Assembly (NCBI GenBank): GCA_013044245.1
Contig: JABEVK010000020.1
Coordinates: 2,209-66,208, forward strand
DNA length: 64,000 nt
Origin: Spirochaetales bacterium
GTDB taxonomy: Bacteria; Spirochaetota; Spirochaetia; JABEVK01
Direction: 5' to 3'
Shown here: piece by piece, positions 8,469 to 46,688 of the stretch
Position numbering within the stretch: the stretch's first letter is position 1
How the letters are laid out: every line of letters begins with the position of its first letter
Program-made: the position numbers and the translations under genes
The notes under the pieces: generated by a model
The model's database searches: none
Told to the model about the DNA's origin: nothing
What the model saw: the letters and a program-made list of their open reading frames with translations, nothing else

Positions 8469-8582
8469 AAGCTTGTATCCCTCACTTTAGTACGTGTTTT
8501 TTACTCTGGAACTTTGTTTTATGCAAATAATGCCGAAAATAAGGGACGATACCTATAAAAAAACGCGCTGTCAGGAGGAGTC

Positions 8583-9197
8583 ATGTTTGATGTCTTGGTA
8601 AAGGGAGGGCCCATTCTGTGGCTGATCCTTCTGTTGTTTGTTCCCATTATTGCTATCACCATTGAACGCCTTTGGTTTTTCAAAAAGATTCACGGTGATG
8701 AAGATAAACTGTTTGCGCGTGTTCGTGCGGCGATTGAAAAACGGCACTACGATGAAGCTTTGGCCATTTGCGACACCGTTGAGGCTCCCTTGGCGGCCTT
8801 GGTTCGGACAGGTTTGGAATACCGCGATCGGCCGCAAGAGGTCCAAACCCGAATGATTGAAGAAACCGCCGCCCGCGAAGTCCCTCGGTTAGAACGAGCA
8901 ATCGGTTGGGTGAGTACCATAGCACAGATTTCACCCTTGTTAGGACTTCTAGGTACCGTGTCGGGCATCATCAATGCCTTTGGCATTTTAGGAAAGTTTG
9001 GCAATGTCACCGACCCCTCGGTTTTGGCCAAGGGGATTAGTGAGGCGCTTTTAACCACGGCGGCAGGAATTGTTGTTGCCGTTCCCGCCATGGTGATTTA
9101 TTACTTTCTTGCCGTGCGTGCCAACCGCGAAATTCAGCGTTTGGAAAGCCGCACCGGAGAGCTGTCCACCCTGTTTACCGGCAAGGGGGTATCATGA
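8583..9197 (+). CDS. MotA/TolQ/ExbB-family proton-channel protein
   Basis: 204 aa with 3 TM segments; LLTTAAGIVVAVPAMVIYYFL conserved C-terminal TM; GGAGGAG RBS. Confidence 0.85.
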   Translation: MFDVLVKGGPILWLILLLFVPIIAITIERLWFFKKIHGDEDKLFARVRAAIEKRHYDEALAICDTVEAPLAALVRTGLEYRDRPQEVQTRMIEETAAREVPRLERAIGWVSTIAQISPLLGLLGTVSGIINAFGILGKFGNVTDPSVLAKGISEALLTTAAGIVVAVPAMVIYYFLAVRANREIQRLESRTGELSTLFTGKGVS

Positions 9198-9610
9198 AAT
9201 TTCGTCGCAGTTTACCAACGGTACCGCCCCTTAACCTGACACCTCTGATTGATGTGATCCTGATGCTTCTTGTGTTTTTTCTTTTGGCCACGGTGTTTCG
9301 GGTGGGCCCGGGATTGGCTGTTCAGTTGCCAGTATCGTCAACAGCTAAAGCGGTGAGCATGACGACGGTGAGGTTGACGGTGGTTTCGGAATCAGAAATT
9401 TGGGTCGATGGACAAAAAGTAGCGTTGGCGGGTCTGGATGGGCTTTTGAAGCAAGACTTGGCGGGAAAAGACCGAGAGCACCTTAGGGTGGTTGTCGAAG
9501 GCGGTTACGACGCTCCTTATCAGCTGGTTGTCTCCGTGCTTGATCATTTGCGTCAAGCAGGCGTAAACGGTGTCAACCTGATGACGAGGCTGGCCAGGAG
9601 ACCCTCCTGA
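9194..9610 (+). CDS. ExbD/TolR-family biopolymer transport protein
   Basis: 138 aa; N-terminal LNLTPLIDVILMLLVFFL TM plus periplasmic domain. Overlaps the exbB stop (ATGA). Confidence 0.85.
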   Translation: MKFRRSLPTVPPLNLTPLIDVILMLLVFFLLATVFRVGPGLAVQLPVSSTAKAVSMTTVRLTVVSESEIWVDGQKVALAGLDGLLKQDLAGKDREHLRVVVEGGYDAPYQLVVSVLDHLRQAGVNGVNLMTRLARRPS

Positions 9611-10527
9611 TGTCTTGGGATACGTGGCGCGAAGCTCAGTACCACAAAAGAGCACAAATCAGCTGGGGAATTTCCTTAGGCGCAGTTCTCGTCACGGTGT
9701 TTGCCCTGTGGTTTGCAGGGCTCAACCACCTCATTCGTCTTAGTGATACCCAAGGCGACGCTATCGCCGTCAAGTTGGGTTCTCCCGACGGTGAAAATGT
9801 TCCGTTGAAGGTCAATCCGATTCCTGACCCTGCCTTTGTTCCGGAACAATCGGTTTCGTCGGTGTCTGAGGCCGTTTCGCAACCACCCCTGCCCAAGGCA
9901 CAAACCTCAAAAGTGACGTCAAGCAAAACTCAAACACCTTCTGAACCCAAGAAGGTTCAAACTCCGCCTCAGCCCCAGCAACAGGTTCGTGTCGTCAAAG
10001 GCAGTGAAACCGGCAATTCGATGGAAACTATCTTTCAGGGAGGGGCCGGGCACGTCGGACGAAGTCTGTATGTGCCAATTTACCTGTATATGCCGCTTCC
10101 CACGAGGCTTTCGCCTTCTTTGATTGCCAAGATTCCTGATAGTCAAGATGGTTTTGAAACCGCCCAACAACGCAAAGATGAGCTTTTGGCCTTTTATCGG
10201 CGCGAAGGGGGCCTTTGGCGTTTGACTGCTCAACCTCCTTTTGAGAGTAGGCCGCGATTGTGGCTGAGCCTCCAGGATGCTGGCTACAACTTAGCAGATG
10301 CCGAGTACAAACGAGGGAATACCCTTACTCCTGTTACTCTTAGTTTTACGCTGTCGGCGCCTCACAATGGTCAACCGCCTGTTCTCCTTAAGGTGACTCT
10401 TGACCGTTCCAGTGGAAACTCCGAGGTCGATGCCGCCGTACTCTATGGCTTTAGGATGTCGGCGTTTGCCAATGGGACCGGTAAAGATGCCCAAGGTTTG
10501 TTCACCTATGACTTTGACGAGAAGTAA
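9610..10527 (+). CDS. TonB/TolA-like energy-transducer candidate (N-terminal TM anchor, Pro/Gln/Lys-rich spacer, C-terminal beta-rich domain)
   Basis: TM ISWGISLGAVLVTVFALWFAGL; spacer PLPKAQTSKVTSSKTQTPSEPKKVQTPPQPQQQ. Positioned third after exbB-exbD with a TGATG overlap. C-terminal domain similarity to TonB is not verified. Confidence 0.45.
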   Translation: MSWDTWREAQYHKRAQISWGISLGAVLVTVFALWFAGLNHLIRLSDTQGDAIAVKLGSPDGENVPLKVNPIPDPAFVPEQSVSSVSEAVSQPPLPKAQTSKVTSSKTQTPSEPKKVQTPPQPQQQVRVVKGSETGNSMETIFQGGAGHVGRSLYVPIYLYMPLPTRLSPSLIAKIPDSQDGFETAQQRKDELLAFYRREGGLWRLTAQPPFESRPRLWLSLQDAGYNLADAEYKRGNTLTPVTLSFTLSAPHNGQPPVLLKVTLDRSSGNSEVDAAVLYGFRMSAFANGTGKDAQGLFTYDFDEK

Positions 10528-10566
10528 ACTCGTGTTATATTCCGTCGCATGAATGTCAGGAATCAC

Positions 10567-11763
10567 ATGAAAAAAAATCTTTTACTGGTGGCCTTTTTCG
10601 CTGGCGTCTTGGGTGCTCCGTTGTGGGGTGCTAGCAAGTGGGAAGTGATTCCCAGTGTGCATACTTGGGGCGGTGAGCTCGATGTTGGCTGGCGTCCGGT
10701 TAGCTTAATTCCCGGCCGGCAAACTACCTTTTGGGTAGGGGGAGCCGGGATTTTACAATTTTGGTCGTATTTTCATGATCCCGCGACGGGTCAGGCGCTT
10801 TTGTCGCCTAACTCTTCAGACGCCTCGGTTACTCAGCTTTTGGGTCAGTGGTTTGCTGGAGCTACCCAGGGTCTTGTCGCTCACTTGGCCGACAAAGGCT
10901 ACGGTGGTCAGCCCTGGGCTAGCCCCGATTTAATTGAGCTTTATGGTTTGTATCGTGGTACGGTCTGGGGTACTCTCGCCTCGGGGTCGTATTTAGCCAC
11001 CTCGTCCCAGCCAGACAAAAATGGTTACGTGCAAACGGCGTTTTTGGGGGGGGTGGACCTCAATATGCTGACGAAAACCAACAGCCATAATTTGCGGCAA
11101 GGGTTTATGGCCGAAGCCGCATGGGCAACGGCTCCTCGGGGTATTCAATCGGTGGATGTGGATTACAACCGTTTTACGGGAACCGTAAAAGGTTTTTTTC
11201 CGCTGTGGGACAGCGATCCTCTCCGTAAAGACAATCAGTTTAGCGTGGAGGGCGGGTTAGCGCTCGCTTGGGACCATTTGTGGGGTCACCGGATTCCTTC
11301 AGAAGAACTTCAGCTCATCGGCGGTCGCGCTCTGGGAGGGTTTACAGGGTGGGTGCAGGGGGTCGGTGGTCAAGTTCGTGGTCCTGACCAGGGAACATTC
11401 GATGGAACCGATAAGTTTATTGGAAACGTGGAATTGCGCTTCAACCTACCGGGTTTGGAACTGCCTTGGTTGGCTCAGGATTATTTTGGCCTGCCCACCA
11501 AGAGCCTTTTTGAAGGTCAAGTAATCCCCGGGTTTATCACGTTTTATGATTATGGGTATTGGAACGGCTTGTCGGGCTATACTGACGGCTATGTCGAATC
11601 TGAGGGCCTAGGGGTCTTCTGTAAGTTCTGGGACTTGGGGACGGTGGCCGCTTATGTCGAACGCTGGCAAGCGTACTGGGGAAATATTGGCCAAAACGGG
11701 ATCGGAACTCCCTTTGAAAGTCAGAATTTCGCCTATACGTTGAGCTTAGGACTGCAGTTCTAG
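10567..11763 (+). CDS. Outer-membrane beta-barrel protein, possibly a POTRA-less Omp85/surface-antigen-like barrel
   Basis: Signal peptide MKKNLLLVAFFAGVLGAPLWGA; C-terminus ...FAYTLSLGLQF (terminal Phe); LIGGRALGGF and FYDYGYW segments reminiscent of Omp85 loop-6 and terminal strands. Start set at ATG 10567. Confidence 0.45.
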   Translation: MKKNLLLVAFFAGVLGAPLWGASKWEVIPSVHTWGGELDVGWRPVSLIPGRQTTFWVGGAGILQFWSYFHDPATGQALLSPNSSDASVTQLLGQWFAGATQGLVAHLADKGYGGQPWASPDLIELYGLYRGTVWGTLASGSYLATSSQPDKNGYVQTAFLGGVDLNMLTKTNSHNLRQGFMAEAAWATAPRGIQSVDVDYNRFTGTVKGFFPLWDSDPLRKDNQFSVEGGLALAWDHLWGHRIPSEELQLIGGRALGGFTGWVQGVGGQVRGPDQGTFDGTDKFIGNVELRFNLPGLELPWLAQDYFGLPTKSLFEGQVIPGFITFYDYGYWNGLSGYTDGYVESEGLGVFCKFWDLGTVAAYVERWQAYWGNIGQNGIGTPFESQNFAYTLSLGLQF

Positions 11764-12249
11764 CTGTTCAAGCCGGAGTGTGGCCCGTGCCTCTCCGGCA
11801 GAATCACCGAGCACTTGGCAAACATCACGCAGGTTGAGCCAGCCATTTTCACTGTCGGGGTTTAACGCTACCGCGCGTTCAAACCGCTCTCTCGCCAAGG
11901 GGTAATCTTCGCGAATGAACGCTGTCACACCCCAGTTATTCCAGGCACGAAAAAATTCAGGCTCAAGCTCAATGGCCTTTTGATAGTACCGTTCGGCGGC
12001 CGAAAGACGGCCTTGCTCGTCGTAAATCAGTCCAATTTCGTTCCAGATTTCTGCTTTTTCAGGGGCCATCGTCAGGCTGTTTTCGAAGGCCTCAAGAGCT
12101 AACAAAAGGTGACCGGCACGTTTTTCTAACAACCCCAGGTTAAAATAAGTCAATGCTTCGGGTTTTTCACGAAGTCTTTCGTTGAGTTCTTGAATTTCTT
12201 CGTCATTCAGGTTGTTATCAAGATCCTCGAGGTTGGGCCAGTCCTGCAT
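11746..12249 (-). CDS. TPR-repeat protein
   Basis: 167 aa. Repeated A..Y..A/G..P..A helical-hairpin pattern (WNEIGLIYDEQGRLSAAERYYQKAIELEP; FRAWNNWGVTAF...ARERFERAVALNP). Confidence 0.7.
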   Translation of the reverse strand: MQDWPNLEDLDNNLNDEEIQELNERLREKPEALTYFNLGLLEKRAGHLLLALEAFENSLTMAPEKAEIWNEIGLIYDEQGRLSAAERYYQKAIELEPEFFRAWNNWGVTAFIREDYPLARERFERAVALNPDSENGWLNLRDVCQVLGDSAGEARATLRLEQLELQS

Positions 12250-27831: not shown

Positions 27832-28156
27832 GGAAGACTCATTATAAAAAAAAAGGCGCATCTGGTGTAGATGCGCCACTCGCTTCGTCAAGCCAGGACA
27901 TTGATTTCTGTGCCCCTTGCCTCATCTTGGTTGGCTTTCCGGTCGGTTTCCCTGATTTCTTCTGACGAAATCTTTTGGGTTGCTTGCGCTTGGCCGGAGG
28001 GGCGGTCCGTCGCGGTTGACGGTCGTATTAGGAGCGGGTCCGAGCCGCTCGCTTTTTCTATTGTCATTGCACCTCCCAATTCAAAATTTAATCCCGGTAC
28101 CGAGAATTGTCCAGTGTTTCTTGCTGAATTTTAGGGGCCGTGCTATCCTGGCGCCC

Positions 28157-29815
28157 ATGAATGGCCGTGTTCGTTTTGGAGGCTGGCTCATCAGCCTGCT
28201 TTTGGTGATGGCAACTCCGTTGTTTGCCCAAGAGACGCCCCCCCAAAAGACGTTTCGCTTTACGCGCCTCACCTTGGATGGGGGTTATCGATTTGTGGGG
28301 CGGTACCCGCTTTTGGGCTCCGACTGGAAGGCCAGCGATTGCTGGGCTGTGACCACGGTTCAAGGACAGGTGAAAGAGGTAGATTATTTTCGCCGTGGCG
28401 TCAATGCTCCTGCTCCTAACACCGGCGTGGCTCGAATCGTCGTGACAGAAGACGGCAATTGGGAAATTCGGACCAATGAAAACCCTCAGGGCCTCGTCAT
28501 TGAAGATTGCGACGGAATAGCCGTTCGTCGTCTAAAAAAGGACGCCTCGGGAGCCTTTGTGGCGATGTTTCAGTATGACCGTGCCGGGAACCTCAAAGAT
28601 GATAGCTCGGGGATTAGTGCCTATTTGTGGGTACCCGATAGCCAAGGTCGCCGTGTGCGTTCGATACGCTTAGACAAGAGTGGAGAACGTACCGTTAATA
28701 AAGCCGGTGTAGCAGAAATAGACTTTACCTATGATAACCAGGGTAACCGTTTGACGGCGCAACTTTTAGATATCAACGGCAAACCGATGGCGGAACCTAC
28801 CGGTGTCGCGTCGTTTGCGTGGACTTATGACGAAGCGGGTAACCCGGTCAGCGAGACGAGGCTGAATCTACAGGGTCAGCCGGTGGGTGGCTGGAATGGC
28901 ATTGCCCGCTGGACCAAGGTTTGGGACTCACAGGGCCGTATTCAAGAACAGGATTTTTGGGATGCGCAGGGCCGCCCCATTACTGACAAGACTGGGGTTG
29001 CCCGTTACGTCTGGCAGTACAATGATGCCTTGCATTGGACCAGAGTCTGGCACTACGACACAGAAGGACAATTGACCTTGGATGATCGGGGGGCTGCGAT
29101 GGTCAAGACTCAGTGGTTTGATCAGTCTAATCAAAAAGAACAAGACATTTACGGGCTAGAGATTAACCCGTACTATGCCGCTCTCCCCTCGGTTCAAAAG
29201 TCTGTTTCGGAACGTTATGAGCTGAAAGACGACGTGGACGGAATCGCCGTCAGGCGCTGGACGTACGACCAAGAGGGAAACCCCATCACGTTCAAAACCT
29301 ATAACGCTCAACTTCAGCCGGTTCCTAACCGTCACGGGGTGATGATTGTTCGCCGCCAGTATAATGTACGGGGTCAGCTAACCCAAGAACGTTTTGAATC
29401 AGCTCCCGGACAACTCATGGAGGCCAATAACGGCTTGGCTGGCTACCGTTGGACGTATGACGGCCAGGGACATTTGCTTCGTCAGGATAATCTCGGGCTG
29501 GACGGTCAGTTAAAACTTGACCCTCAAGGAGTAGCCTCCTACCAGTGGACATACGATGAGCGTGGCTTACGGATTAAGCAGAAGAACCTGGGAACTCTCG
29601 GGCAACTGAAAGATGACAACCGGGGAGTCGCGATTTATTTGTGGAAATACGACAAGTTTGGTGATTTGAGCGAAGAAGCCCATGACGGTATCGATGAACG
29701 GCCTACTGTGGATACCTCAGGCGTTTATATCTACCGCTATAGGCCCTCGGCCGGGGGAACGTTGGCTTTGGTGCAGAGTTTTGATCTTAATGGAAACCCA
29801 ATAGGGGGGAATTAA
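28157..29815 (+). CDS. Secreted repeat protein with ~45-aa YD/RHS-like repeats
   Basis: Signal MNGRVRFGGWLISLLLVMATPLFAQ. Recurrent G(V/I)A.Y.W.YD..G unit, e.g. GVASFAWTYDEAGNP, GVARYVWQYNDALHW, GLAGYRWTYDGQGHL, GVASYQWTYDERGLR, GVAIYLWKYDKFGDL. Confidence 0.6.
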   Translation: MNGRVRFGGWLISLLLVMATPLFAQETPPQKTFRFTRLTLDGGYRFVGRYPLLGSDWKASDCWAVTTVQGQVKEVDYFRRGVNAPAPNTGVARIVVTEDGNWEIRTNENPQGLVIEDCDGIAVRRLKKDASGAFVAMFQYDRAGNLKDDSSGISAYLWVPDSQGRRVRSIRLDKSGERTVNKAGVAEIDFTYDNQGNRLTAQLLDINGKPMAEPTGVASFAWTYDEAGNPVSETRLNLQGQPVGGWNGIARWTKVWDSQGRIQEQDFWDAQGRPITDKTGVARYVWQYNDALHWTRVWHYDTEGQLTLDDRGAAMVKTQWFDQSNQKEQDIYGLEINPYYAALPSVQKSVSERYELKDDVDGIAVRRWTYDQEGNPITFKTYNAQLQPVPNRHGVMIVRRQYNVRGQLTQERFESAPGQLMEANNGLAGYRWTYDGQGHLLRQDNLGLDGQLKLDPQGVASYQWTYDERGLRIKQKNLGTLGQLKDDNRGVAIYLWKYDKFGDLSEEAHDGIDERPTVDTSGVYIYRYRPSAGGTLALVQSFDLNGNPIGGN

Positions 29816-33971: not shown

Positions 33972-36434
33972 ATGCCACATCTCAACCCTTACGGGCATTT
34001 TGACGACGCGAACCGCGAATACGTCATGGTCCGGCCCGATACCCCTCTGCCCTGGCTGAATTATCTTGGCCAGGATGAATTCTTTGGTTTGTGCACCAAT
34101 ACCGCAGGCGGTTATACGTTTTGGAAAGACGCTAAACTACGGCGCCTGACCCGCTACCGGTACAATAATATTCCCTATGACTTGGGTGGGCGCTACCTGT
34201 ACGTCCGTGACGGTGATTTCGTGTGGAACCCTGGCTGGAAGCCTGTAAAGACGGTCTTGGATTCGTACGAATGCCGCCATGGTCTAGGCTATACCACCAT
34301 TACTGGTGTTAAAAATCAGTTATCCGTGTCGCAGACCATGCTGGTTCCCCCTGGTGAAAATCTTGAGCTGTGGAAGGTGACGGTAAAAAACCTTTCGGGC
34401 GCCCGGAAACAGGTCAAACTCTACTCTTTTCAAGAGTTCGCCTTCTACGAAGCTCTTAACGATATGACGAACTACCAAAGAACCTACTCGATAGGCGAGG
34501 TCGAGGTCGAAGATGGCGTGATTTATCACAAAACCGAATACCGCGAACGCCGTAACCACTACACGTTGTTTGCTTGCACCGGGCCGGTGACAGGTTTTGA
34601 TACCAGTCGCGATGTGTTTGTGGGGGTTCATGAAGGTCTTCACGAAGCCCAGGTTCCCATGAAGGGAAAAGCCGGTAACTCCTTGGCGTTCGGCTGGAAC
34701 CCCATTGGTAGTCACGAGGTGACGCTCAGCCTAAAGCCAGGCGAAGAAACCTCGTTTGCTTTCATCTTGGCGTATGTTGACCATGATTTAGCGGGTTTTA
34801 CCGGCCCCAAGTTCAGTGCTCCTATGGTGATGAACAAAGAGTTGGGACGGCAACTGGTCGCCAAATACCGCCGAATCGAGGCTGTGGACGACGCCCTCGC
34901 GCGGTTGAAGGCCTACTGGGACGAAAATCTTTCGCATTTTCAAGTGGAAAGCCCCGATCCTCATGCCACCCGTATGGCCAATATTTGGAATCAGTACCAG
35001 TGTATGGCAACCTTCAATATGAGTCGTTCGGCGTCACTGTATGAAACAGGCATAGGCCGAGGAATGGGTTTTCGCGATTCTAACCAGGACTTGTTAGGGT
35101 TTGTTCATATGATTCCCTCTCGGGCCCGTGAACGAATTTTAGACATTGCGGCAACCCAACTGTCCGATGGAACGTGTTTTCATCAATATCAGCCGCTCAC
35201 AAAAAAGGGAAACTCCGAAATTGGTGGAGACTTTTACGATGACCACCTTTGGCTTGTCCTGTCGACGGTGAGCTACATCAAAGAAAGTGGTGATGTTTCA
35301 ATTCTTGAAGCCCCCTGCGGGTACGCCGACAAGGATTATACCAGCGTCCAAAAAGAGAATTTGTTACATCATCTGGAAACGTCCCTTGCCTACACCATGG
35401 CCAAAAGGGGTCCGCATGGCCTGCCGTTGATTGGCCACGCCGACTGGAACGATTGTCTCAACCTGAACTGTTTTTCGACAGAGCCCAATGAAAGCTTTCA
35501 AACCGCTGGCGATGTTAACGGCTCATCGGCAGAATCGGTGATGATTGCGGGGTTGTTCCTGTACGCGGCCCGTGATCTATCACAGCTTTACGAATTTCTG
35601 GGCCGGAACGACGATGCCCAACGGATTAATACCTTCAGGCAAACTATGCTCGACACCGTAGAAAAAGTGGCATGGGATGGGGCCTGGTACACCAGAGCCT
35701 ACGATGCGGCTGGTAAGGTCATCGGCTCTCATACCAATGATGAAGGACAAATCTTTATTGAAAGCCAAGGTTGGGCAGTTTTGGGTGGCGCCGGTGCCGA
35801 GAACGGGCGGGCACGACAGGCGCTAGAAAGCGTTCATCAACGCTTGTATACCGCTAACGGTATAGTCCTGCAACAGCCTCCGTATAGCACCTATCGTAAG
35901 GAATATGGTGAGGTCACCTCGTACCCGCCGGGGGTCAAAGAGAATGCAGGGATTTTTAGCCATAATAATACCTGGATACATTTGGGTTGGTGCTTGCTCG
36001 GCGAAGGTGACCGAGCCTTAGAGTACTACCACTCGATTTGCCCTTCGAAAAAAGAGGAACAAATCGATACCTACCGGTCCGAACCCTACGTCTATGCTCA
36101 AATGACGGCCGGCAAAGATGCCCCTTGTTTTGGTGAAGCTAAAAACTCTTGGCTGACGGGCACTGCCGCTTGGACGTTTGTCGTTGTGAGTCAGGGAATC
36201 TTTGGCATCAAACCGCACTTTCAGGGCCTTCAGATTGACCCGTGCGTGCCTCGTGGGTGGAAGGAGTTCCGGGCGAAGCGTACCTTTCGTGAAGGAACCT
36301 TCGAGATCCACGTCACAAACCCCAAGGGCGTTTCTAAGGGGGTTGCATCGGTCACGGTTGATGGCAAGCCGATAGCGGGAAATATCATTCCCGCCTTGTC
36401 AGGAAAACACAGTGTCGAAGTCGTAATGGGCTAG
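33972..36434 (+). CDS. Glycoside hydrolase family 94 phosphorylase (cellobiose/chitobiose phosphorylase type)
   Basis: 820 aa. N-terminal YGHFDDANREYVMVRPDTPLPWLNYLGQDEFFGLCTNTAGGYTFWKDAKLRRLTRYRYNNIPYDLGGRYLYVRDGD closely follows the conserved GH94 N-terminal domain; size is typical. Confidence 0.85.
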   Translation: MPHLNPYGHFDDANREYVMVRPDTPLPWLNYLGQDEFFGLCTNTAGGYTFWKDAKLRRLTRYRYNNIPYDLGGRYLYVRDGDFVWNPGWKPVKTVLDSYECRHGLGYTTITGVKNQLSVSQTMLVPPGENLELWKVTVKNLSGARKQVKLYSFQEFAFYEALNDMTNYQRTYSIGEVEVEDGVIYHKTEYRERRNHYTLFACTGPVTGFDTSRDVFVGVHEGLHEAQVPMKGKAGNSLAFGWNPIGSHEVTLSLKPGEETSFAFILAYVDHDLAGFTGPKFSAPMVMNKELGRQLVAKYRRIEAVDDALARLKAYWDENLSHFQVESPDPHATRMANIWNQYQCMATFNMSRSASLYETGIGRGMGFRDSNQDLLGFVHMIPSRARERILDIAATQLSDGTCFHQYQPLTKKGNSEIGGDFYDDHLWLVLSTVSYIKESGDVSILEAPCGYADKDYTSVQKENLLHHLETSLAYTMAKRGPHGLPLIGHADWNDCLNLNCFSTEPNESFQTAGDVNGSSAESVMIAGLFLYAARDLSQLYEFLGRNDDAQRINTFRQTMLDTVEKVAWDGAWYTRAYDAAGKVIGSHTNDEGQIFIESQGWAVLGGAGAENGRARQALESVHQRLYTANGIVLQQPPYSTYRKEYGEVTSYPPGVKENAGIFSHNNTWIHLGWCLLGEGDRALEYYHSICPSKKEEQIDTYRSEPYVYAQMTAGKDAPCFGEAKNSWLTGTAAWTFVVVSQGIFGIKPHFQGLQIDPCVPRGWKEFRAKRTFREGTFEIHVTNPKGVSKGVASVTVDGKPIAGNIIPALSGKHSVEVVMG

Positions 36435-36436
36435 GG

Positions 36437-37396
36437 CTATACCTCGGGGGCAGGGGGGTGAATGGCATCATGATCCTTACGAGTTTCAAGATGCGTGGTC
36501 ACCATACAGCCGGGAAACGATGCGGCGAGCGTTTGTTCGATCCGCGTCGCTGACCGGTGAGCATCACGAAGGCGGGCGTTGTCGTCAAACAGCAGGTGGA
36601 CTTGGATCCAGTACCGGTTGCCTGAATTGCGAAAACGCGCTTCGTGATACCCTGCTTTTTCTGCTTGGCAGGCGGCGGCTAAAACGTCTTCGAGTTTTCG
36701 TTCCTCGTCGGGAGTAACGCGGTCCATGAGACCCGAAAACGATCGTCGCATGAGTTTTCCGCCTTCGGACAAGATATTTAAGGCGGCTAAGACGGCAAAG
36801 ATTGGGTCAAAATAGGCCGGGTCAAACGTCCAGGTGCCCACCTGGATCCAATTTTTGGGAAAAAACAAAACCAACAACAAACCGATTAAAATCCCACCCG
36901 AGGTGACGGAATCCGTCAGCACGTGGCGCCCATTGGCTTCGAGAATCAAATTCTTTTTTCGTTTGCCAAGTTGAATCAGACCTAGGCCCAAAACCCCATT
37001 GACGACAAGAACAACCCCACTGATGATCGTACCGACATCGACATCACTTAAGCGTGGACCTTCAATAAATTTGAGTACAGCTTCGTAAATGATGAACAAG
37101 GCCGCCAGAACAATCATGGCTCCTTCAAACCCGGCGCTGAAAAAGCTGATGCGGTCGTACCCAAACTGATGGGATTTGTCTGACCGTTTAGCTGAAAGTT
37201 TGAGGCTGTAAAAAGCAAAGGTGACGGCGACGACGTGTACCACAGACTCGGCGGCGTCAGACATGATCGCGGCCGAATTGGTGATGACATACGCGGTCAT
37301 CTTGGTAATCAGCATCAAAAACCCGATGGTGAGGCTGAGCAACATGGCTCGCCCCAGGGTTTTATCGGCTGTAGGGGGGGCGGGGGCGAACATCAT
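36437..37396 (-). CDS. Cation diffusion facilitator (CDF) family metal efflux transporter
   Basis: Six TM segments with SDAAESVVHVV...; C-terminal cytoplasmic domain. Start set at ATG 37396 (GAGGA RBS 5 nt upstream). The ORF's first ATG at 37462 would overlap the upstream gene by 100 nt. Confidence 0.8.
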   Translation of the reverse strand: MMFAPAPPTADKTLGRAMLLSLTIGFLMLITKMTAYVITNSAAIMSDAAESVVHVVAVTFAFYSLKLSAKRSDKSHQFGYDRISFFSAGFEGAMIVLAALFIIYEAVLKFIEGPRLSDVDVGTIISGVVLVVNGVLGLGLIQLGKRKKNLILEANGRHVLTDSVTSGGILIGLLLVLFFPKNWIQVGTWTFDPAYFDPIFAVLAALNILSEGGKLMRRSFSGLMDRVTPDEERKLEDVLAAACQAEKAGYHEARFRNSGNRYWIQVHLLFDDNARLRDAHRSATRIEQTLAASFPGCMVTTHLETRKDHDAIHPPAPEV

Positions 37397-40300
37397 GAAA
37401 ATCCTCGCTTTTTTCGAGTGAAAGGTCATAAACCGCCGAAGTTTTGCGGTTTTTGTTTTCAACGTAGTGAATTGTACAAATATAATCTTCTACCACATTA
37501 ATTTTATCCAGAGGAGTCACGACCATCAACTGAAGATTCATCTGTTCAAAGAGTTTCATCGCGAATTTTGAGTTTTCAGGGTCGACCTTGCTAAAAGCTT
37601 CGTCCACCACGGCAAACCGCAGGGAACGCGACCCCGCCGTGCCACGAATGCCAAACTGGTGGGCGATCGCACTTGCCAAAATGGTGTAGGCCAGCTTGGC
37701 CTTTTCACCGCCCGAGAGACTCTGGCTGTCCTGGTAATACTGCCGTTGAGAACCATCTTCGGCGTAACGTTCCACGGCCGCGAACTGAAGCCAATGGCGC
37801 ACGTCGGTGACCTTTTTTCGCCAAAGCTCATCGTCGGACAGGGCTTGGATGATGGCGCGAATGCGATGAAAGGCTTGTTCGAGGTCACTGTCGCCTGCCA
37901 GGGCCTCTTTGAGCATGCGCCGAAAGTCGCGGATTTGTAGGTCGCGGCTGTCCTCGGCCTGAAGTTGAATAAAGGTGGCGGGAAGGCTGTTGTAGGTGAT
38001 AGTTTTTAACGATGAGTTGAGTTCCCGCACGGTTTCTTGAATGGCCCGCAGATGATTTTCTAACGAAGTTCGAAAATCAGCGATGTCTTCGAGCAACCTT
38101 TGGTTGAGCCAATCCTTAAACCGTTTCTGGTACCCGGGGAGGTCTTCACGCCGAATACGGTCGTACCGCTGGCGAAACTCGTCCAAGTTGTCAGCCTTGG
38201 CCATCAATGAGGCCGTCTCGCCTGTCCACTCGGGAAATCGTGCGGCCAACTCAGCCCCCGGGTTGATGTACCGATGCAAGGCGGTTTCTAGCTCGCGTTC
38301 CACCATTTTAAGTTCGTCGATGGTTCGTTTTCGTTCCCCCGCCAGGGTACGACTGACTTCGTCGCGGACTTTGACCAAAGACCCTAGGTCGAGCAAGATG
38401 TTCACTTGTTTGAGCCACGGTTCGAGGCGTCGATGGCCCTCTTCTAAATCAAAACCCGCAAAGTCGAGCAGAATGCGCTGGGCCGCAGACTCTTCCATTT
38501 CATACTCTTCAAGGGTCTTGCGGAGTCGCCCCGACTGAGCGGTCGTTTCATCTTTTTCGCGGGTTTTGTCTTTGAGGGCAACTTTGAGCTCTGCTAAGCG
38601 TTGGTGCAGTTGGTCGGTGCCGCTATCGCCTGTTAGGGCCTTCTTGCGTTCCGCCAGCTTGGCGAGCTCGGCAGTTTCCGTCTCGGTATCCAGTTGGTTC
38701 CAGGCGGTAAAATCGAGAAGCTTTTCTAAAAGGATCCGTCGGTTATCGGTCTGACGGCGTTTGTCTTCTAAAGCGGATTGTTGAGCCTCAAGGCGTGTCA
38801 GTTCAGCTTGAGCGGTTTCGCGGCGCTGAAACAGGGCCTTGCGCTGAACCTCATTCTCCCAACCAAGGACAAAGCACCCTGGGTCTTCCCAACCGGGGGA
38901 TGGGCGACTCCACAGACGCCCATCACGAATCCAGCCGTCTTGGGTAAATCCCCGCTGGGTTCGTGAAAGTTGATCGCGTTCGCAAGCCTGAAAATCGTAG
39001 GTCCGTCGCAACCAGGCGGCTAGACGTTCCCCCCAAGGTGCCAAGCGACGAAACTCTAAAAGGTCCGAGAGTTGGTCCCTCTCTTCCGAGACAAAGAATT
39101 GTTCTTCGGCGGAGTCGCGCAAAACCAGGATTTTTCCGGGGTGTTCATCGACCCAAGTTCGTATGGCGGACTCGTGTTCAGGGTCAACGATCACCGCCAA
39201 AAGGACATCGCCCAAAAGTCGCTCTACCGCTGGCCTCCACGCGGGGTCGAGAACCCGGACCAACGCGGCCGCAAACGGAAGTTTTTCGGGGTCCATGTCG
39301 AGGTCCGCAGCCATCCGGTCGCGCCACTGCCTGCGATCGCGGGGAATCGCATCCGAATGATGACGAAGGCTTTCTAGCTCTTGAGACAGTGCCTCGGCTT
39401 CCTCACTGGCGGCAAGAAGTCGGTTTCGTCCTTCGGCCCAGGCGACGCTGGCGGGAGCCACTTGTTCTTCGAGAGCCGATTTTTGTCGGACGGCTTCTTC
39501 GCGGTGCTCCCAAAAGCCAGGTTCTCCCTGTACCGGGCCAAACCCCAGTGCCTTGGCCAAACTGTCATACTCGTGTCTTAAACGCTCTTTTCCGGCGAGA
39601 ATATCGCGGCGATGGGCCACGTCGCGCTCTAAGGCGTCCAAGAGTCCGCTTTGACTTTTGTCGCGAAGGGCGAACTCCCAATCTCGTTCCTGGCGGCGCA
39701 AATCTTCGAGCTGAAGTTCTAGACTGTCCTTTTGAGCTTCGACGGCCGCCAAACGTACTTGCTCACGGTTTTTGGCTTCGGCGAGAAGTCGTTTTTCTTG
39801 GGCCGCAAAAACGGGAGCTACAGCGTCCCAAGCCTGATCCTGCTCGGCTTTTTGCTGACTGAGTGTTTCCCAGCGCTCGCCGGCCAGCATGGCCGGTTCC
39901 AACAAACGAAGCTGTTCACGAGCCTTTTCAATCTGCTGATGAGCCCCCAAAAGGTCTTCATAGTTCTTTTTGAGTTTGGCGAAGTCTTCTTCCATATCCG
40001 CCGCATCGAGCATATTGTCGCGGATAAACTCGTTCAGGTCGCCTAATACTTTAACACCGACCACATGCGAGAACAAACTAAGGGCTTTGTCGCTTTTTAG
40101 TCCAAACAAGCTTGAAAAGGTTTGCCCATAAAGAGCAAAGGTATCGAAGAATTTCACCGGATGCCGGGCGGTGAGGGCTTTTTTCCAAGCGGGTCCCCCG
40201 TCAAAAGGCAGTAAATCTTCAGAGCAAAGACCGGCGTTGGCCACCAGGTAGAGCCGTTTCAGTGTGCCTGCCGACCACCAACGCAGTTGGGCCAACGTTG

Positions 40301-40688
40301 CTTCTTGTTGAAAGCTCTCATTGGCAAAGCTGGCTAAAAGGAGAGAAAAATCGTCTTTACCGCGTAAGTATTGCGTTTCGCCTGTGGTGCTGTCTTCATC
40401 GCGAAGGGTACCGTAGGCCCCCAGTACATACGAAGTTTCATCCCGTTCCCGTTTTTTGTCCGCCCCCGACGACTGGTTGTAGTGACGTTTGCCTGGAGGA
40501 ACCAGCAGGGTAACTAGGGCATCGACCACGGTGGTCTTACCTGAACCGTTGGCGCCCGTGAGGAGGGAGTTTTTACCGCGAGGGGCCAAGCGGTAAATCT
40601 TGTCGTGAAAGGTGCCCCAGTTATAAATCTCGAGAGTATTCAGATGCCAGCCAGCGCTTTGAACATCTGTTTCAAAGAGAGTAGACAT
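37362..40688 (-). CDS. MukB/MksB/JetC-like SMC-family ATPase (long coiled-coil, N-terminal Walker A head and C-terminal signature/Walker B head)
   Basis: 1108 aa. N-terminus LEIYNWGTFHDKIYRLAPRGKNSLLTGANGSGKTTVVDA (MukB-like NW...GxNGxGKTT). Central region rich in heptad-like E/L/R/K. C-terminus LSGGEKAKLAYTILASAIAHQ...LRFAVVDEAFSKVD. Confidence 0.7.
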   Translation of the reverse strand: MSTLFETDVQSAGWHLNTLEIYNWGTFHDKIYRLAPRGKNSLLTGANGSGKTTVVDALVTLLVPPGKRHYNQSSGADKKRERDETSYVLGAYGTLRDEDSTTGETQYLRGKDDFSLLLASFANESFQQEATLAQLRWWSAGTLKRLYLVANAGLCSEDLLPFDGGPAWKKALTARHPVKFFDTFALYGQTFSSLFGLKSDKALSLFSHVVGVKVLGDLNEFIRDNMLDAADMEEDFAKLKKNYEDLLGAHQQIEKAREQLRLLEPAMLAGERWETLSQQKAEQDQAWDAVAPVFAAQEKRLLAEAKNREQVRLAAVEAQKDSLELQLEDLRRQERDWEFALRDKSQSGLLDALERDVAHRRDILAGKERLRHEYDSLAKALGFGPVQGEPGFWEHREEAVRQKSALEEQVAPASVAWAEGRNRLLAASEEAEALSQELESLRHHSDAIPRDRRQWRDRMAADLDMDPEKLPFAAALVRVLDPAWRPAVERLLGDVLLAVIVDPEHESAIRTWVDEHPGKILVLRDSAEEQFFVSEERDQLSDLLEFRRLAPWGERLAAWLRRTYDFQACERDQLSRTQRGFTQDGWIRDGRLWSRPSPGWEDPGCFVLGWENEVQRKALFQRRETAQAELTRLEAQQSALEDKRRQTDNRRILLEKLLDFTAWNQLDTETETAELAKLAERKKALTGDSGTDQLHQRLAELKVALKDKTREKDETTAQSGRLRKTLEEYEMEESAAQRILLDFAGFDLEEGHRRLEPWLKQVNILLDLGSLVKVRDEVSRTLAGERKRTIDELKMVERELETALHRYINPGAELAARFPEWTGETASLMAKADNLDEFRQRYDRIRREDLPGYQKRFKDWLNQRLLEDIADFRTSLENHLRAIQETVRELNSSLKTITYNSLPATFIQLQAEDSRDLQIRDFRRMLKEALAGDSDLEQAFHRIRAIIQALSDDELWRKKVTDVRHWLQFAAVERYAEDGSQRQYYQDSQSLSGGEKAKLAYTILASAIAHQFGIRGTAGSRSLRFAVVDEAFSKVDPENSKFAMKLFEQMNLQLMVVTPLDKINVVEDYICTIHYVENKNRKTSAVYDLSLEKSEDFHDVRPRPPYSR

Positions 40689-40763
40689 AGCCCCACTCTA
40701 GGGGGAGGCAAGCCCCCTGTCAACGAGGGGGGGCAAACCAAACAGCGGTGTCAACGAAACGAT

Positions 40764-42008
40764 TTAGAGATGACTGCCCAGAGCATCGACAATATGGAGT
40801 TTCCCTGCCCTTCGTGCGGGGAGCCATGCCCCCAAAACAGCAATCAATGCTGACCCTGCGATCGCAAGCACAAACGGCAACGGTTGATAGACAGGCTTCA
40901 AAAGGCTGGTAAACGGAATGGGCATATTTTCGGGGAGGAGTTTTCGTACATCGATGCCTCCAGCGAAGGCGATTCCCAGGGCCAAAGCCGCCAGCACCCC
41001 AACAATACCACCGAGAGCTCCCAGCAAGAGACCTTCGGTCAAAAAAAGCCGCCGGAGGTTTTTTCGCTTCATGCCCAAAGCACGAAGGGTACCGATTTCA
41101 CGAAAGCGTTCCTGAACCGACATTGACAAGGAATTGAGTATCCCTACCGCCACCAACAGAACCAAAATACCCAACATGAGGGTAAGTATTCGGATCCGAC
41201 TGTCGATGGAACTGACTACCGTTTGAGCAAACTCTTTCCATTCGTAGACCTTGAGAGGTTGACCAGCTAAGGTGGCATTTCTTTTTAGGGCGCGAATGGT
41301 TTCGGCAGTGTCGGCTGCCGTGTCATTCCCGTGAAAGCGAAGAACCACGCGGGTCGCGAAATCGGGGCGTAACGAGAGGGCTTCCCGAGCCTTGTCGAGG
41401 GTGGTGAAAATAATATGATGGTCAAAGAGGGCAAACCCCAACGAAAAGATGCCCGAGATGGTCCCCGAAACAAGGTTGCGAACGCCATAGCGATCCAGCG
41501 CGGTCAAAAAAACCTGCTGTCCCACGTGCAGACCCAAAGTGGCGGCAAGACCGCTGCCGACCACGATGTCATTGGGGCCTTTCATCCAGGTACCAGCAGT
41601 GAGGTTGCGGGCAATGGTGGTGAGTTTTGGTTCCGCTCGGGGGTCAACTCCTCGAACCTGTACTGGAACTGACGTGACTCCATTGCTGATTCCTGCCGCG
41701 TAGTCGATGCGAGCTCCTACAGCCTCCAGACCGGGGAGGGTGTGAGCAAAAGTTTCGACAGCCTTGGTGTCGGTGATGCCCAAATCCAGCGGAAGACGAA
41801 CACTTTCGGCCTCGTAGCCTCGGTTGAGTATCTGAACATCCGCCGTGTCGATATCGCGTTGGGTTTGGTAGACGGTCTGTTCCATGCCGATGATCCAGGC
41901 TTGCATACTGATCAGGACCATCACTCCCAAGGCAATGGCAATGACGTTTAAAAACGTTCGCCGGGGGTTACGGAAAACATTGCGTAGTGCGACCTTGAAG
42001 ATTTCCAT
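40764..42008 (-). CDS. ABC transporter permease, FtsX/MacB/LolC-E family
   Basis: 414 aa; N-terminal TM, large periplasmic domain, C-terminal 3-TM FtsX domain (LRALGMKRKNLRRLFLTEGLLLGALGGIVG). Confidence 0.8.
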   Translation of the reverse strand: MEIFKVALRNVFRNPRRTFLNVIAIALGVMVLISMQAWIIGMEQTVYQTQRDIDTADVQILNRGYEAESVRLPLDLGITDTKAVETFAHTLPGLEAVGARIDYAAGISNGVTSVPVQVRGVDPRAEPKLTTIARNLTAGTWMKGPNDIVVGSGLAATLGLHVGQQVFLTALDRYGVRNLVSGTISGIFSLGFALFDHHIIFTTLDKAREALSLRPDFATRVVLRFHGNDTAADTAETIRALKRNATLAGQPLKVYEWKEFAQTVVSSIDSRIRILTLMLGILVLLVAVGILNSLSMSVQERFREIGTLRALGMKRKNLRRLFLTEGLLLGALGGIVGVLAALALGIAFAGGIDVRKLLPENMPIPFTSLLKPVYQPLPFVLAIAGSALIAVLGAWLPARRAGKLHIVDALGSHL

Positions 42009-42071
42009 ACCAGCTCCTTTATTCTCATAACCTAAACTTTTGTCATGCCAAGTCTTTTATAGGTACGTTAG

Positions 42072-43301
42072 CTATAGGTACGTTAGCGCATCGATGACGC
42101 TCTTTTTGGCCGCGACTCTGGCGGCGTAAAAGGTTGACGCCAAGGCAATGACAATTCCCGCTGCCCCATTAGCCACAATATCAGTCACCTTAAGAACGGG
42201 GTAAATTCGGCTGGCAAAACCCAAGTATTCGGTGGCTGACCCCACATCGACCCCAACCTTGGCCAAAATGGCAACGGCGCTGGCGCCAAAAATCAAGCCG
42301 CAGAGCGCACCCAGAGCCCCTAACAGGCCTCCCTCGGCGAGCAACATCGCCAACAACTGCCGCCGTTTTAGGCCGATTGCCCGCAGGGTGCCATGTTCTC
42401 GCATTCGCTCGAAGATGGACATTAGGATCGAGTTGGCAATGACAGAGGTGGCCACGATGATAAAAAAGATGCGGATAATGGCCGAAACAACATCTAAAAG
42501 CTTGAGGATGGTAAGGAGTGACCCAAAGGTTTCTTGCCAGACGTCGATTTCGTAGTGTTGTGGCGGAAACTCTGAGAGCAAACTTTGGCGAACCGCATAG
42601 CTATCGGCAGGATTTTTTAAAACCAGCCGAATTTCGCGAGTCATCCCTTGTGCGTCCAAAAGCGACTCGGCAGTCGCCGTGGACACGAAAAACAAGCTGT
42701 CATCGGTTAAATCGCTTCCTGAACGGTACAAACCCGTGATTTTTAGCTCTTGGTACCAGGGATTATTGTCTCGGTCGGTGGTGAGTACCATCACCGAACC
42801 GCCATACTTGACCCCCAACAGCTTGGCCGCACTCTCGGACAAAAGAATGCCCTCACCTTGGGGCAGAAAGCTACCTTGGGTGATTCCTTGGCGGATGTTA
42901 GAATAAAAAGCCGTGGAGGGCGAAACTCCTTGCCCCATCATGCCGAGATTTTTGGCATCCGCTTTGCTGTCCACTGGTACCGGTTGAACCACCAGGGCAG
43001 GAAAGCTCAAGATTTTTTCTTTGATCAGCACCCGAGGGTCCTGAATCTGGGCCAAAAGCTTGTTGGCGTGGGGCAAAAGGTACTTGAGGTCCTGGGGGTT
43101 CACAGCATTATCAGAACCAGCGGCCTTGATTTCAATATGGCCAGCCGTGGGTAAAATGCTGTCCAAAAAGGTTGCCGTGAGCCCACTGAGGACACCGCTG
43201 ATGAGAGTGAGGACCCCCACGGCGATGAGCACAGCAAAAAAAACCACTAAGGACCGTTTACTGTGCTTAAAAATATTGAGCCAGGCCAGTTTAAAGAACA
43301 T
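42072..43301 (-). CDS. ABC transporter permease, FtsX/MacB/LolC-E family (second copy)
   Basis: 409 aa; same architecture (LRAIGLKRRQLLAMLLAEGGLLGALGALCG); GGGGAGA RBS. Confidence 0.8.
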   Translation of the reverse strand: MFFKLAWLNIFKHSKRSLVVFFAVLIAVGVLTLISGVLSGLTATFLDSILPTAGHIEIKAAGSDNAVNPQDLKYLLPHANKLLAQIQDPRVLIKEKILSFPALVVQPVPVDSKADAKNLGMMGQGVSPSTAFYSNIRQGITQGSFLPQGEGILLSESAAKLLGVKYGGSVMVLTTDRDNNPWYQELKITGLYRSGSDLTDDSLFFVSTATAESLLDAQGMTREIRLVLKNPADSYAVRQSLLSEFPPQHYEIDVWQETFGSLLTILKLLDVVSAIIRIFFIIVATSVIANSILMSIFERMREHGTLRAIGLKRRQLLAMLLAEGGLLGALGALCGLIFGASAVAILAKVGVDVGSATEYLGFASRIYPVLKVTDIVANGAAGIVIALASTFYAARVAAKKSVIDALTYL

Positions 43302-43303
43302 GG

Positions 43304-43987
43304 TTAGTTCTCCCCGACGATCAGTCCATCTTTGAGACGAATGATCCGTGTCGCATACTTTTCAATCAAGGCGTTGTGAGTCGAAAAGATGAAGCTGACT
43401 TTTTCTTCTTCATTGAGGCGTTTCATCACCTCCATAATTATGGTTGAGGTCACTGAGTCGAGGTTGGCCGTCGGTTCGTCCGCAATGACCAGGCGCGGAC
43501 GGTTGACGAGGGCCCGGGCGATTGCTACCCGTTGCCGTTGTCCCCCAGAAAGCTCATCGGGTTTGTGTTTAACAAACTCTCCCAAGCCCACCACATCAAC
43601 CAAGTGGTCGACAATCTTTTGCCGTTCCTTGGAGCCTACTTTGCGCATCAAAAGGGGAAACTCAATGTTCTCGCGGATATTGAGGACGGCGATCAAGTTA
43701 AACGATTGAAAGATGAAGCCGATTTCGTTAAGCCGGATTTCGGCCTCCTGGTCATCATTCAGGGTGGCAAGATCGCGGCCCTGAAAGTGCACACTACCAC
43801 TGGTTGGCTTGTCGATACAGCCAAGAATATTCAGTAACGTTGTTTTGCCACAGCCGGAGGGGCCCACAATCGACAAAAAATCACCGGTGTCAATGGTGAA
43901 GCTGACGCCCTTAAGGGCGGGAATAATGGTTTTTCCTAGCTGGTAGTTCTTGGTAACCTCGCGGATCGTAAGGACGGGTTCGGCCAT
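43304..43987 (-). CDS. ABC transporter ATP-binding protein, LolD/MacB type
   Basis: Walker A GPSGCGKTT; signature LSGGQRQRVAIARAL; Walker B LVIADEPTANLD. Start set at ATG 43987 (AAGGAG RBS 6 nt upstream); the ORF's GTG at 44011 is an alternative. Confidence 0.88.
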   Translation of the reverse strand: MAEPVLTIREVTKNYQLGKTIIPALKGVSFTIDTGDFLSIVGPSGCGKTTLLNILGCIDKPTSGSVHFQGRDLATLNDDQEAEIRLNEIGFIFQSFNLIAVLNIRENIEFPLLMRKVGSKERQKIVDHLVDVVGLGEFVKHKPDELSGGQRQRVAIARALVNRPRLVIADEPTANLDSVTSTIIMEVMKRLNEEEKVSFIFSTHNALIEKYATRIIRLKDGLIVGEN

Positions 43988-44011
43988 GGATGACTCCTTA
44001 ATTTTGAGCAC

Positions 44012-45223
44012 TTAAAAGTGATAACGGGTTTGAAAGATGACGACATAACGCGCGGTCTGCGTATTTGGAGGGGGCAGCGGCACGCTGTTCCAGGCATCGG
44101 TAACGGCCCCGGTTGCCGCCTGAAAGCTCCCCACCAAGTCAAGACTATCCCAGGGAGTAAGGGTGAGGCTGGCCTGGTAGAGGGCGCTCCCGTCTTGAAG
44201 GTCCACCAAACAAAAGCCTGCCAAATCAAACGTGTCGCTCGAATTAGCATCCAGGTGAAAGATAGCATTGTACCGATCACGAAGCGTAGGTCGAATTGTC
44301 GACACGCTGGTTCCAGAAAGCTCGTTAGCTTGGGCCACTTGGCTGGACGTCCATCCTTGCCCCCAGTACAAGGTTTCCCCTTGAACCGTGAGGTCGATGT
44401 CGCCTAGCGACCAGGTGTAACGGGCCCCTACCGAGCCGGATGGGGCGGGTTGGGTCCAAGCCGTGGGGGCGGTCCAGGTACTGACAAGGCCCGACGCTGG
44501 TACGAGGCCTTGAGGCAGAAACTCCACAGCACCTTCGGCCGTAAGAATGACGCCGCTTACGTCGTACGAAACCCCTAGTGCGGGGTTGAACGTTTCGTTA
44601 GGACTGAAACACAGGCTTGCGGTTCCTTGAAAGCGGCCCGTTTGAAGGCTGAGTTGCGTTGCCCCGGCCAGGTTATTGGCAGAAAATACCGGGAGCGGTA
44701 CTGCACTCCCCGGGGTGTTCCCCAGCTCACGTTCCAGTGAGATTCCGCCTGTCCACCCCAACCAGGCGTTCGGCGACCAGGCCCAGGTTGCTCCTCGAAA
44801 ACCGCTTTTTTGGTCAAAGAAGTTAATCGCGGGGTTGATCGAGTCTCCCACGGTGAAGGTTTGTCCCACACCGAGGTTGAGTCGTTTTTTACCGAAAGTC
44901 AAATCCAGTCCCGAAAAAGGGGTGAGCCTTACGTAAGCTTCGGCGATATCGAAGAGGGCTTGGCCTGCCTGAAGGGAGTTCCCCAGCGGCAAATAGGCCG
45001 AACCGTCAAGGATGAAGGCGGCTGCCCCTTGCGAAAAGCTGAGTCGACCGTTGAGGTCCAACAGCCACTGCGTTGTGGCCCCCGAGTTCCAATCGGGGGC
45101 CGACCCAAGAAGAATTTGCCCCGCATCGGCGACATAATTAAAACCGGGTTCGTCTTGAGCAGAAAGAGGAAGCCCCGCCAGTCCCAGAAAAAGAACACCC
45201 CAAAGGGGGGCCAGCTTCTTCAT
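44012..45223 (-). CDS. Outer-membrane beta-barrel protein (hypothetical)
   Basis: Signal peptide MKKLAPLWGVLFLGLAGLPLSAQ; alternating amphipathic beta-strand pattern; C-terminus ...VVIFQTRYHF. Confidence 0.55.
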   Translation of the reverse strand: MKKLAPLWGVLFLGLAGLPLSAQDEPGFNYVADAGQILLGSAPDWNSGATTQWLLDLNGRLSFSQGAAAFILDGSAYLPLGNSLQAGQALFDIAEAYVRLTPFSGLDLTFGKKRLNLGVGQTFTVGDSINPAINFFDQKSGFRGATWAWSPNAWLGWTGGISLERELGNTPGSAVPLPVFSANNLAGATQLSLQTGRFQGTASLCFSPNETFNPALGVSYDVSGVILTAEGAVEFLPQGLVPASGLVSTWTAPTAWTQPAPSGSVGARYTWSLGDIDLTVQGETLYWGQGWTSSQVAQANELSGTSVSTIRPTLRDRYNAIFHLDANSSDTFDLAGFCLVDLQDGSALYQASLTLTPWDSLDLVGSFQAATGAVTDAWNSVPLPPPNTQTARYVVIFQTRYHF

Positions 45224-45226
45224 GGG

Positions 45227-46015: not shown

Positions 46016-46169
46016 GAAATCTCCTTTAATTTCGAAACCACTTCTCTGAGAACGTATAAAGTTACATTGTATCACAAATCAGAGATGGGGTAACTTGAAA
46101 AGTTTGGCAAGGGGGACCAAGATAGAACCAAACACAGAGGGGTAAACCTTTGTGTTCAAGGAGGCCTGT

Positions 46170-46646: not shown

Positions 46647-46688
46647 AAAATATACGACTGTAATCAGTAACGGTCAAAGGGGAAAAAA

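Follow-up and report, generated by a model that had tools for sequence, protein, structure and literature searches.

Does an energy-transducing motor of the Ton or Tol type that is encoded directly upstream of an outer-membrane barrel serve that barrel? The question is raised by four co-directional genes in a 64,000-nucleotide (nt) stretch of contig JABEVK010000020.1 from a Spirochaetales bacterium, the whole of which is referred to here as the window. The first three encode an ExbB/TolQ-type channel subunit, an ExbD/TolR-type subunit and a TonB-like anchor protein (the trio), and the fourth encodes a β-barrel of the Omp85 superfamily without POTRA domains. An earlier note on this DNA had proposed a transducer dedicated to the barrel, and our results argue against this: the adjacency is confined to a narrow clade, none of the other trio loci examined carries the barrel, the barrel family occurs in varied contexts, a promoter-like element precedes the barrel gene, and the mature barrel lacks a periplasmic segment at its N terminus. 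We favor instead, at a probability of about 0.72, two independent neighboring units, namely a Ton-like operon and a once-relocated noNterm Omp85 paralogue with a probable promoter of its own, and the association of trio and barrel is most likely accidental, a matter of ordinary gene order. The features on which the argument draws are as follows.

8573 to 8578, plus strand: ribosome-binding site AGGAGG, 4 nt 5′ of the exbB-like ATG, read from the sequence
8583 to 9197, plus strand: gene 1, ExbB/TolQ-type proton-channel subunit of 204 amino acids (aa), by Pfam MotA_ExbB
9194 to 9610, plus strand: gene 2, ExbD/TolR-type subunit, 138 aa, by Pfam ExbD
9610 to 10527, plus strand: gene 3, TonB-like anchor protein, 305 aa, with a transmembrane (TM) helix, a linker and a predicted TonB C-terminal-domain fold
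10514 to 10541, plus strand: sigma-70-like promoter candidate for the barrel gene, by consensus scan and conservation
10549 to 11763, plus strand: gene 4, POTRA-less ("noNterm") Omp85-superfamily barrel, 404 aa from ATG 10549 or 398 aa from ATG 10567
11746 to 12249, minus strand: convergent cytoplasmic TPR protein, 167 aa, by Pfam TPR_1 (2.5e-21)

The four packed reading frames described in the earlier note are all present, and so are the overlaps it reported among the first three genes, ATGA between genes 1 and 2 (9194–9197) and TGATG between genes 2 and 3 (9608–9612). The description does not extend to gene 4, which has no overlap with gene 3 and begins either 21 nt (ATG 10549) or 39 nt (ATG 10567, MKKNLL) past its stop codon (10525–10527). 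At the other end, the barrel stop codon overlaps the 3′ end of the convergent TPR gene by 18 nt (11746–11763), and there is therefore no room for a terminator on either strand. Upstream of the exbB-like gene lies a 114-nt AT-rich intergenic region that probably contains the promoter of the trio operon; the consensus scan called no plus-strand promoter upstream of this gene. The window has a G+C content of ~51%, unbroken in composition at the four-gene region, and the order past the trio is barrel, convergent TPR protein, OmpR-type regulator, histidine kinase and LeuS. The close relatives are metagenome-assembled genomes (MAGs) labelled Spirochaetales.

A metagenome scan for the TonB-like family yielded 76 loci in addition to three fetched earlier, and the barrel family was sought downstream of each trio with a hidden Markov model built from 54 barrel relatives. 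Wherever the upstream DNA suffices (45 of 45 loci), the TonB-like gene follows ExbB and ExbD, and the barrel is found in 0 of the 53 other trio loci having at least 1300 nt of downstream sequence. The distribution of the four-gene cassette in related genomes, a check that the earlier note itself had suggested, thus confines that form to the window and four relatives. Clustering of all open reading frames (ORFs) neighboring the trio gave no conserved outer-membrane partner of any kind; the recurrent neighbors, each in a subset of loci, are histidine kinases, adenylosuccinate lyase, SSB, IclR and similar proteins. Within one Spirochaetota lineage, these gene neighborhoods mark the exbB-exbD-tonB-like trio as a conserved module that stands alone, in the style of a housekeeping system. 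A homologue of the TPR gene begins 3–131 nt past the tonB-like stop codon in six barrel-less relatives (L014, L022, L023, L026, L042 and L091) and lies within 345–1477 nt of it in four more. As the TPR gene follows the TonB-like gene directly in these outgroups, the barrel fills a gap that is empty in them, and comparative gene order identifies the convergent TPR gene as the ancestral right-hand neighbor of the trio, marking the site of barrel insertion. L014 and the window also have an upstream FKBP-type gene in common, and the downstream two-component genes of L014 are arranged differently.

The adjacency of trio and barrel was seen only in the window, L015 (95% barrel identity), L016 (82%), and L017 and L099 (59%), the last two having TonB-like proteins 54% identical to that of the window. 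In a neighbor-joining tree without bootstrap, the linked barrels are monophyletic, with unlinked relatives branching around them, which implies a single relocation. The other barrel relatives adjoin genes for an S8 peptidase, PilZN3, BacA, radical SAM/MFS proteins, DUF2127 or sugar-nucleotide enzymes, amounting to about nine independent contexts without exbBD. The MAG clean382 encodes three barrel paralogues (L016, L018 and L020; 82%, 46% and 47% identity to the barrel of the window), only one of which is beside exbBD; this set resembles the multi-paralogue pattern of the Leptospira noNterm Omp85s (PMC11358297). A distant member of the family (L098, 1–13194) is located within a co-directional run of sugar-nucleotide and surface-polysaccharide genes (rmlA/C/D-like, UDP-glucose dehydrogenase, glycerophosphotransferase-like), a context that may hint at a role for some barrel family members.

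The short interval in front of the barrel gene holds a promoter candidate, found by consensus scan, that consists of TTGACG, a 16-nt spacer and an extended −10 element (TG-T-TATATT), with 10 of 12 consensus matches plus the TG. The −10 of this TTGACG-16-TGTTATATT arrangement ends 7 nt ahead of ATG 10549, a distance that suggests a leaderless or near-leaderless barrel mRNA. All five linked genomes keep the TGTTATATTCC block at a distance of 7 nt from the ATG, although the proteins are down to 59% identity and the remainder of the spacer has diverged. In the unlinked relatives L006 and L011, TATAAT is found 6 nt ahead of the ATG of the barrel-family gene. Because the element is conserved in the linked clade and has a counterpart in these two relatives, a leaderless-type promoter seems to travel with the barrel gene, and the −10-like hexamers 6–7 nt from the start codons (TATATT or TATAAT, preceded by TG in the linked clade; 10533–10551 in the window) suggest that leaderless mRNAs are used for the barrel family in these spirochetes. 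The barrel gene of the window thus probably has an extended −10 promoter of its own, which would give a leaderless mRNA. L017 additionally has an 11-bp hairpin (−19.4 kcal/mol) directly 3′ of the tonB-like stop codon.

Gene 4 itself is a POTRA-less noNterm barrel of the Omp85 superfamily. Both the signal peptide (cleavage after MKKNLLLVAFFAGVLGAPLWGA, ahead of S) and the terminal Phe (...LGLQF) noted previously are present, and predicted strand 1 begins at residue 31, only 2–3 residues past the cleavage site, leaving no periplasmic domain. The mature protein consequently has no N-terminal extension in which a TonB box could reside; the one candidate segment (WEVIPSV) was ruled out, as it is predicted strand 1 itself and is unconserved even within the linked clade. 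The lid-lock of Omp85 proteins is defined by the loop-6 Arg and the Asp of the strand-13 FxDxG motif (PMC11358297). The loop-6 motif of the barrel is VRG (276–278), inside a long loop (246–287); R277 does not vary among the 54 relatives, and at least 90% of them have G278. In the fourth position of the motif, Pro, Ile or Val stands in place of the aromatic residue of (V/L/M)RG(F/Y/W). FYDYG (332–336) is the FxDxG motif, in a predicted strand (325–339) that is the second past loop 6; D334 is the same in every sequence of the 54-member alignment, and G336 is kept by at least 90% of relatives. The earlier note had pointed to two segments as resembling loop 6 and the closing strands; FYDYG proves to be the FxDxG strand, but GGxxxGGF is not the loop-6 motif, as VRG is located ~10 residues downstream of it.

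The assignment of the barrel is made at the level of the superfamily rather than to NF047779 or PF01103, as its own scores are below the cut-offs and the support comes through its relatives. The barrel of the window has no Pfam match and scores 27.8 bits (1.7e-6) against a cut-off of 200 with NCBIfam NF047779, "Omp85 family outer membrane protein". Matches to NF047779 were obtained for 46 of the 54 diverse relatives (best 2.2e-21), to Pfam Omp85 (PF01103) for 4 and to the BamA model for 4. Foldseek gave 45 matches at E ≤ 1e-3, all of them to BamA, TamA, Toc75 or Sam50 except one FepA model, while a PDB sequence-profile search with the barrel family gave no match at E ≤ 10. The barrel belongs to none of the known porin families that might have been expected (porin, OprD, FadL). 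All of its 11 close homologues are unannotated. A profile search of 1.84 billion representatives recovered 194 relatives (clusters at 50% identity), the best 150 of which are all no longer than ~465 aa, most full-length ones being 340–420 aa, so that none of those 150 carries a POTRA-sized N-terminal domain. The earlier identification of gene 4 as an Omp85-like barrel without POTRA domains is therefore borne out by the profile matches of its relatives, the Foldseek results, the lid-lock motifs and the position of strand 1.

The suggestion that such a barrel is in itself unusual does not stand, since the class had already been described: noNterm Omp85s were defined by Heinz & Lithgow 2014 (PMC4104836), and LIC12252, LIC12254 and LIC12258 of the spirochete Leptospira were reported by Bettin et al. 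2024 (PMC11358297). The barrel resembles these proteins in its ~370–400 residues, its signal peptide, the absence of a POTRA or other periplasmic domain, the loop-6 xRGx and the strand-13 FxDxG, and its family resembles them in having several paralogues per spirochete genome in variable neighborhoods. It is nevertheless only distantly related, as its 27.8-bit score attests, and it differs in the non-aromatic fourth loop-6 residue and in its AlphaFold2 model (predicted local distance difference test [pLDDT] score 59.9), which has, at low confidence, 14 strands as opposed to the 16 of the Omp85 type. Consistent with the lack of a Pfam match, no DUF5982-type N-terminal signature was detected.

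The third gene was previously described as having TonB/TolA architecture, and this holds at the level of predicted fold but not of sequence models. The protein has no Pfam or NCBIfam match, including to Pfam TonB_C and all NCBIfam TonB models, yet the source records of some of its 25 database homologues call them "energy transducer TonB". In the family alignment, a TM segment is followed by a variable Pro/Ala/Ser-rich spacer and then by ~180 well-conserved C-terminal residues. In the AlphaFold2 model built from this alignment, a helix (3–46) is followed by a disordered region (44–121, pLDDT <50) and a confidently modelled globular part (125–305). The 78-residue linker (44–121) can be described as Pro/Ser/Val/Gln/Lys-rich, with 13 Pro, 11 Ser, 7 Lys and 7 Gln. 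The last ~90 residues are predicted to adopt the TonB C-terminal-domain fold, with no match to the TonB_C sequence model, and in the fold comparison TonB C-terminal domains rank above TolA domains; the TonB/TolA C-terminal fold that the earlier note proposed to look for is thus present in the model. The family profile matched the PDB only weakly (E 0.0019), and only to the low-complexity N-terminal part of TonB. Upstream of the TonB fold, residues ~125–205 (window 9982–10224) form an additional, highly conserved and confidently modelled module, KGSExGNS...GRSLYVPIYLYMPLP, the GRSLYVPIYLYMPLP segment of which is near-invariant in the family alignment. This module has no Pfam match and no PDB structural match above noise, and it is specific to this spirochete TonB-like family.

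The two motor subunits are more readily placed, gene 1 by Pfam MotA_ExbB (PF01618; 1.3e-32, 112.7 bits against a gathering cut-off of 22.9) and gene 2 by Pfam ExbD (PF02472; 2.3e-25, 89.5 bits against 25.4), in agreement with their original identification as MotA/TolQ/ExbB and ExbD/TolR proteins. The conserved acidic residue of the ExbD/TolR TM helix is present in gene 2 as Asp20, in LIDVILMLLVFF (LIDVIL), which we take to be the counterpart of the functionally important E. coli ExbD D25 and TolR D23. In NCBIfam, gene 1 matches tolQ (8.9e-26) and exbB (5.8e-21), both far under the equivalog cut-offs, and gene 2 matches tolR (7.8e-17) and ExbD (5e-10), both under the cut-offs, so that the scores are marginally nearer to tolQ/tolR than to exbB/exbD.

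These scores bear on whether the trio belongs to the Ton or the Tol branch. It is possible, albeit doubtful, that the trio functions as a Tol-like (TolQ-TolR-TolA) system in envelope integrity or division rather than in Ton-type nutrient uptake, with the barrel still an unrelated neighbor. The slightly better tolQ/tolR scores would fit this, as would the stand-alone, housekeeping-style contexts and the lack of a visible receptor, and the TolA C-terminal domain has its fold in common with that of gene 3. Against it, the equivalog cut-offs are far from being reached, TonB C-terminal domains outrank those of TolA, the spacer is disordered and Pro-rich as opposed to the long helix of TolA domain II, and there is no tolB, pal or cpoB. 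A canonical Tol-Pal locus, with tolB or pal immediately downstream, was ruled out on this last ground, and the adjacent TPR protein was rejected as a CpoB-like candidate because of the convergent orientation of its gene and its lack of a signal peptide. The ranking of TonB over TolA, the disordered Pro-rich spacer and the absence of tolB and pal favor the Ton-like interpretation. Like the Ton system, the trio has an N-terminal TM anchor, a Pro-rich periplasmic spacer and exbB-exbD beside the transducer gene. The TM segment of E. coli TonB carries an SHLS motif, Ser-x3-His. Gene 3 lacks this Ser-x3-His and differs further from TonB in the absence of a Pfam TonB_C or NCBIfam TonB match and in the ~80-residue module ahead of the TonB fold.

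A more consequential alternative is that the coupling is real but specific to this lineage, the TonB-like protein having been recruited to energize the barrel, for example by opening the lid-lock or lateral gate for secretion or uptake, so that the two units form one machine driven by the proton-motive force. Several observations weigh on that side and against two independent units. The barrel gene is on the same strand as the tonB-like gene, the gap is only 21–39 nt and the window contains no convincing terminator between them, and read-through co-transcription is therefore likely. The adjacency has been kept in five genomes down to 54–59% protein identity, which is longer than neutral linkage often lasts. 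A further point is the additional conserved periplasmic module of the TonB-like protein. Neither the window nor ~770 kb of fetched related loci yielded a TonB-dependent transporter, in a sample that is biased to these loci and does not represent whole genomes, and the target of the trio may for this reason be non-canonical. The transporter search took long ORFs with an aromatic final residue and covered the window and all 99 loci; the candidates it returned were a pyruvate-formate-lyase-like protein or had no match. It must also be conceded that the barrel promoter is a consensus match backed by conservation and that the barrel model (pLDDT 59.9) is of moderate confidence.

We nonetheless consider such a coupled machine improbable. 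The trio occurs without the barrel in every other locus where the comparison could be made, including outgroups that retain the ancestral arrangement; the barrel family occurs in about nine independent contexts away from exbBD; the linked clade reflects one relocation event; and a conserved promoter-like element stands directly 5′ of the barrel gene. The barrel offers neither a periplasmic extension nor a TonB box, and the TonB-like proteins of the linked clade have no distinguishing C-terminal changes compared with their unlinked relatives. No literature report was found linking Omp85 proteins to ExbBD/TonB. The Agl-Glt gliding machinery of Myxococcus combines a TolQR-like motor with the TonB-C-domain proteins GltG and GltJ and with outer-membrane barrels that are not TonB-dependent transporters. 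This is a conceptual precedent only, for an ExbBD/TolQR-type motor and TonB-fold anchors acting on such barrels, as the locus studied here has no other Glt-type components and its barrel is of the Omp85 type. The specific proposition that the TonB-fold protein, perhaps via its extra module, was recruited in the narrow clade to supply a POTRA-less Omp85 barrel with proton-motive force strikes us as very unlikely. If it were true, the barrel would be the first energized Omp85-type insertase or secretion pore, the Ton-like system would have an outer-membrane client that is not a plug-containing TonB-dependent transporter, and the view that Omp85 machines need no energy input would be overturned.

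Under the two-unit interpretation that we prefer, and by analogy with the Ton and Tol systems and from family membership, an inner-membrane ExbB/ExbD proton channel would drive the TM-anchored TonB-like protein, whose flexible Pro/Ser-rich linker would extend the TonB-fold domain and the ~80-residue module through the periplasm toward a target whose gene lies at another locus. The barrel, one of several paralogues per genome with a loop-6 Arg/strand-13 Asp lid-lock, would have been relocated once, in the ancestor of the narrow clade, to its present place, flanked by the tonB-like gene on one side and the convergent TPR gene on the other. By analogy with other members of its superfamily, its role would be in secretion or in the insertion of outer-membrane proteins, with no energy supplied by the Ton-like motor.

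Elsewhere in the window, the genes of a Wadjet type I system are found in split form on the minus strand (36437–49091): JetA (47649–49091; 1.3e-95) and JetB (47060–47758; 2.5e-44) are separated from JetC (37362–40688; 1.1e-271) by ~6.4 kb containing five co-directional genes, including those for an ABC ATPase-like protein and two LolE/MacB-type permease-like proteins. A 341-aa ORF past JetC (36437–37462) has no PADLOC match and occupies the candidate JetD position. The window also encodes an RHS-repeat protein (27980–29815), a GH94 enzyme of the cellobiose/chitobiose phosphorylase type (33972–36434), a CHAD-domain protein (58758–60161) and a 590-aa ORF with a final Trp and no Pfam match (56051–57823).

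The trio and the barrel are new, unannotated proteins of already known kinds, and neither is surprising to a specialist. What the locus contributes is, first, an uncharacterized family of POTRA-less Omp85 barrels that is restricted to spirochetes, comprises about 194 clusters at 50% identity, has several paralogues in each genome and falls short of the curated models. The second contribution is a conserved ExbB-ExbD-TonB-like trio of spirochetes, with an unrecognized module of ~80 conserved residues in its anchor protein. Both the barrel family and the trio are leads for annotating the envelope biology of spirochetes.

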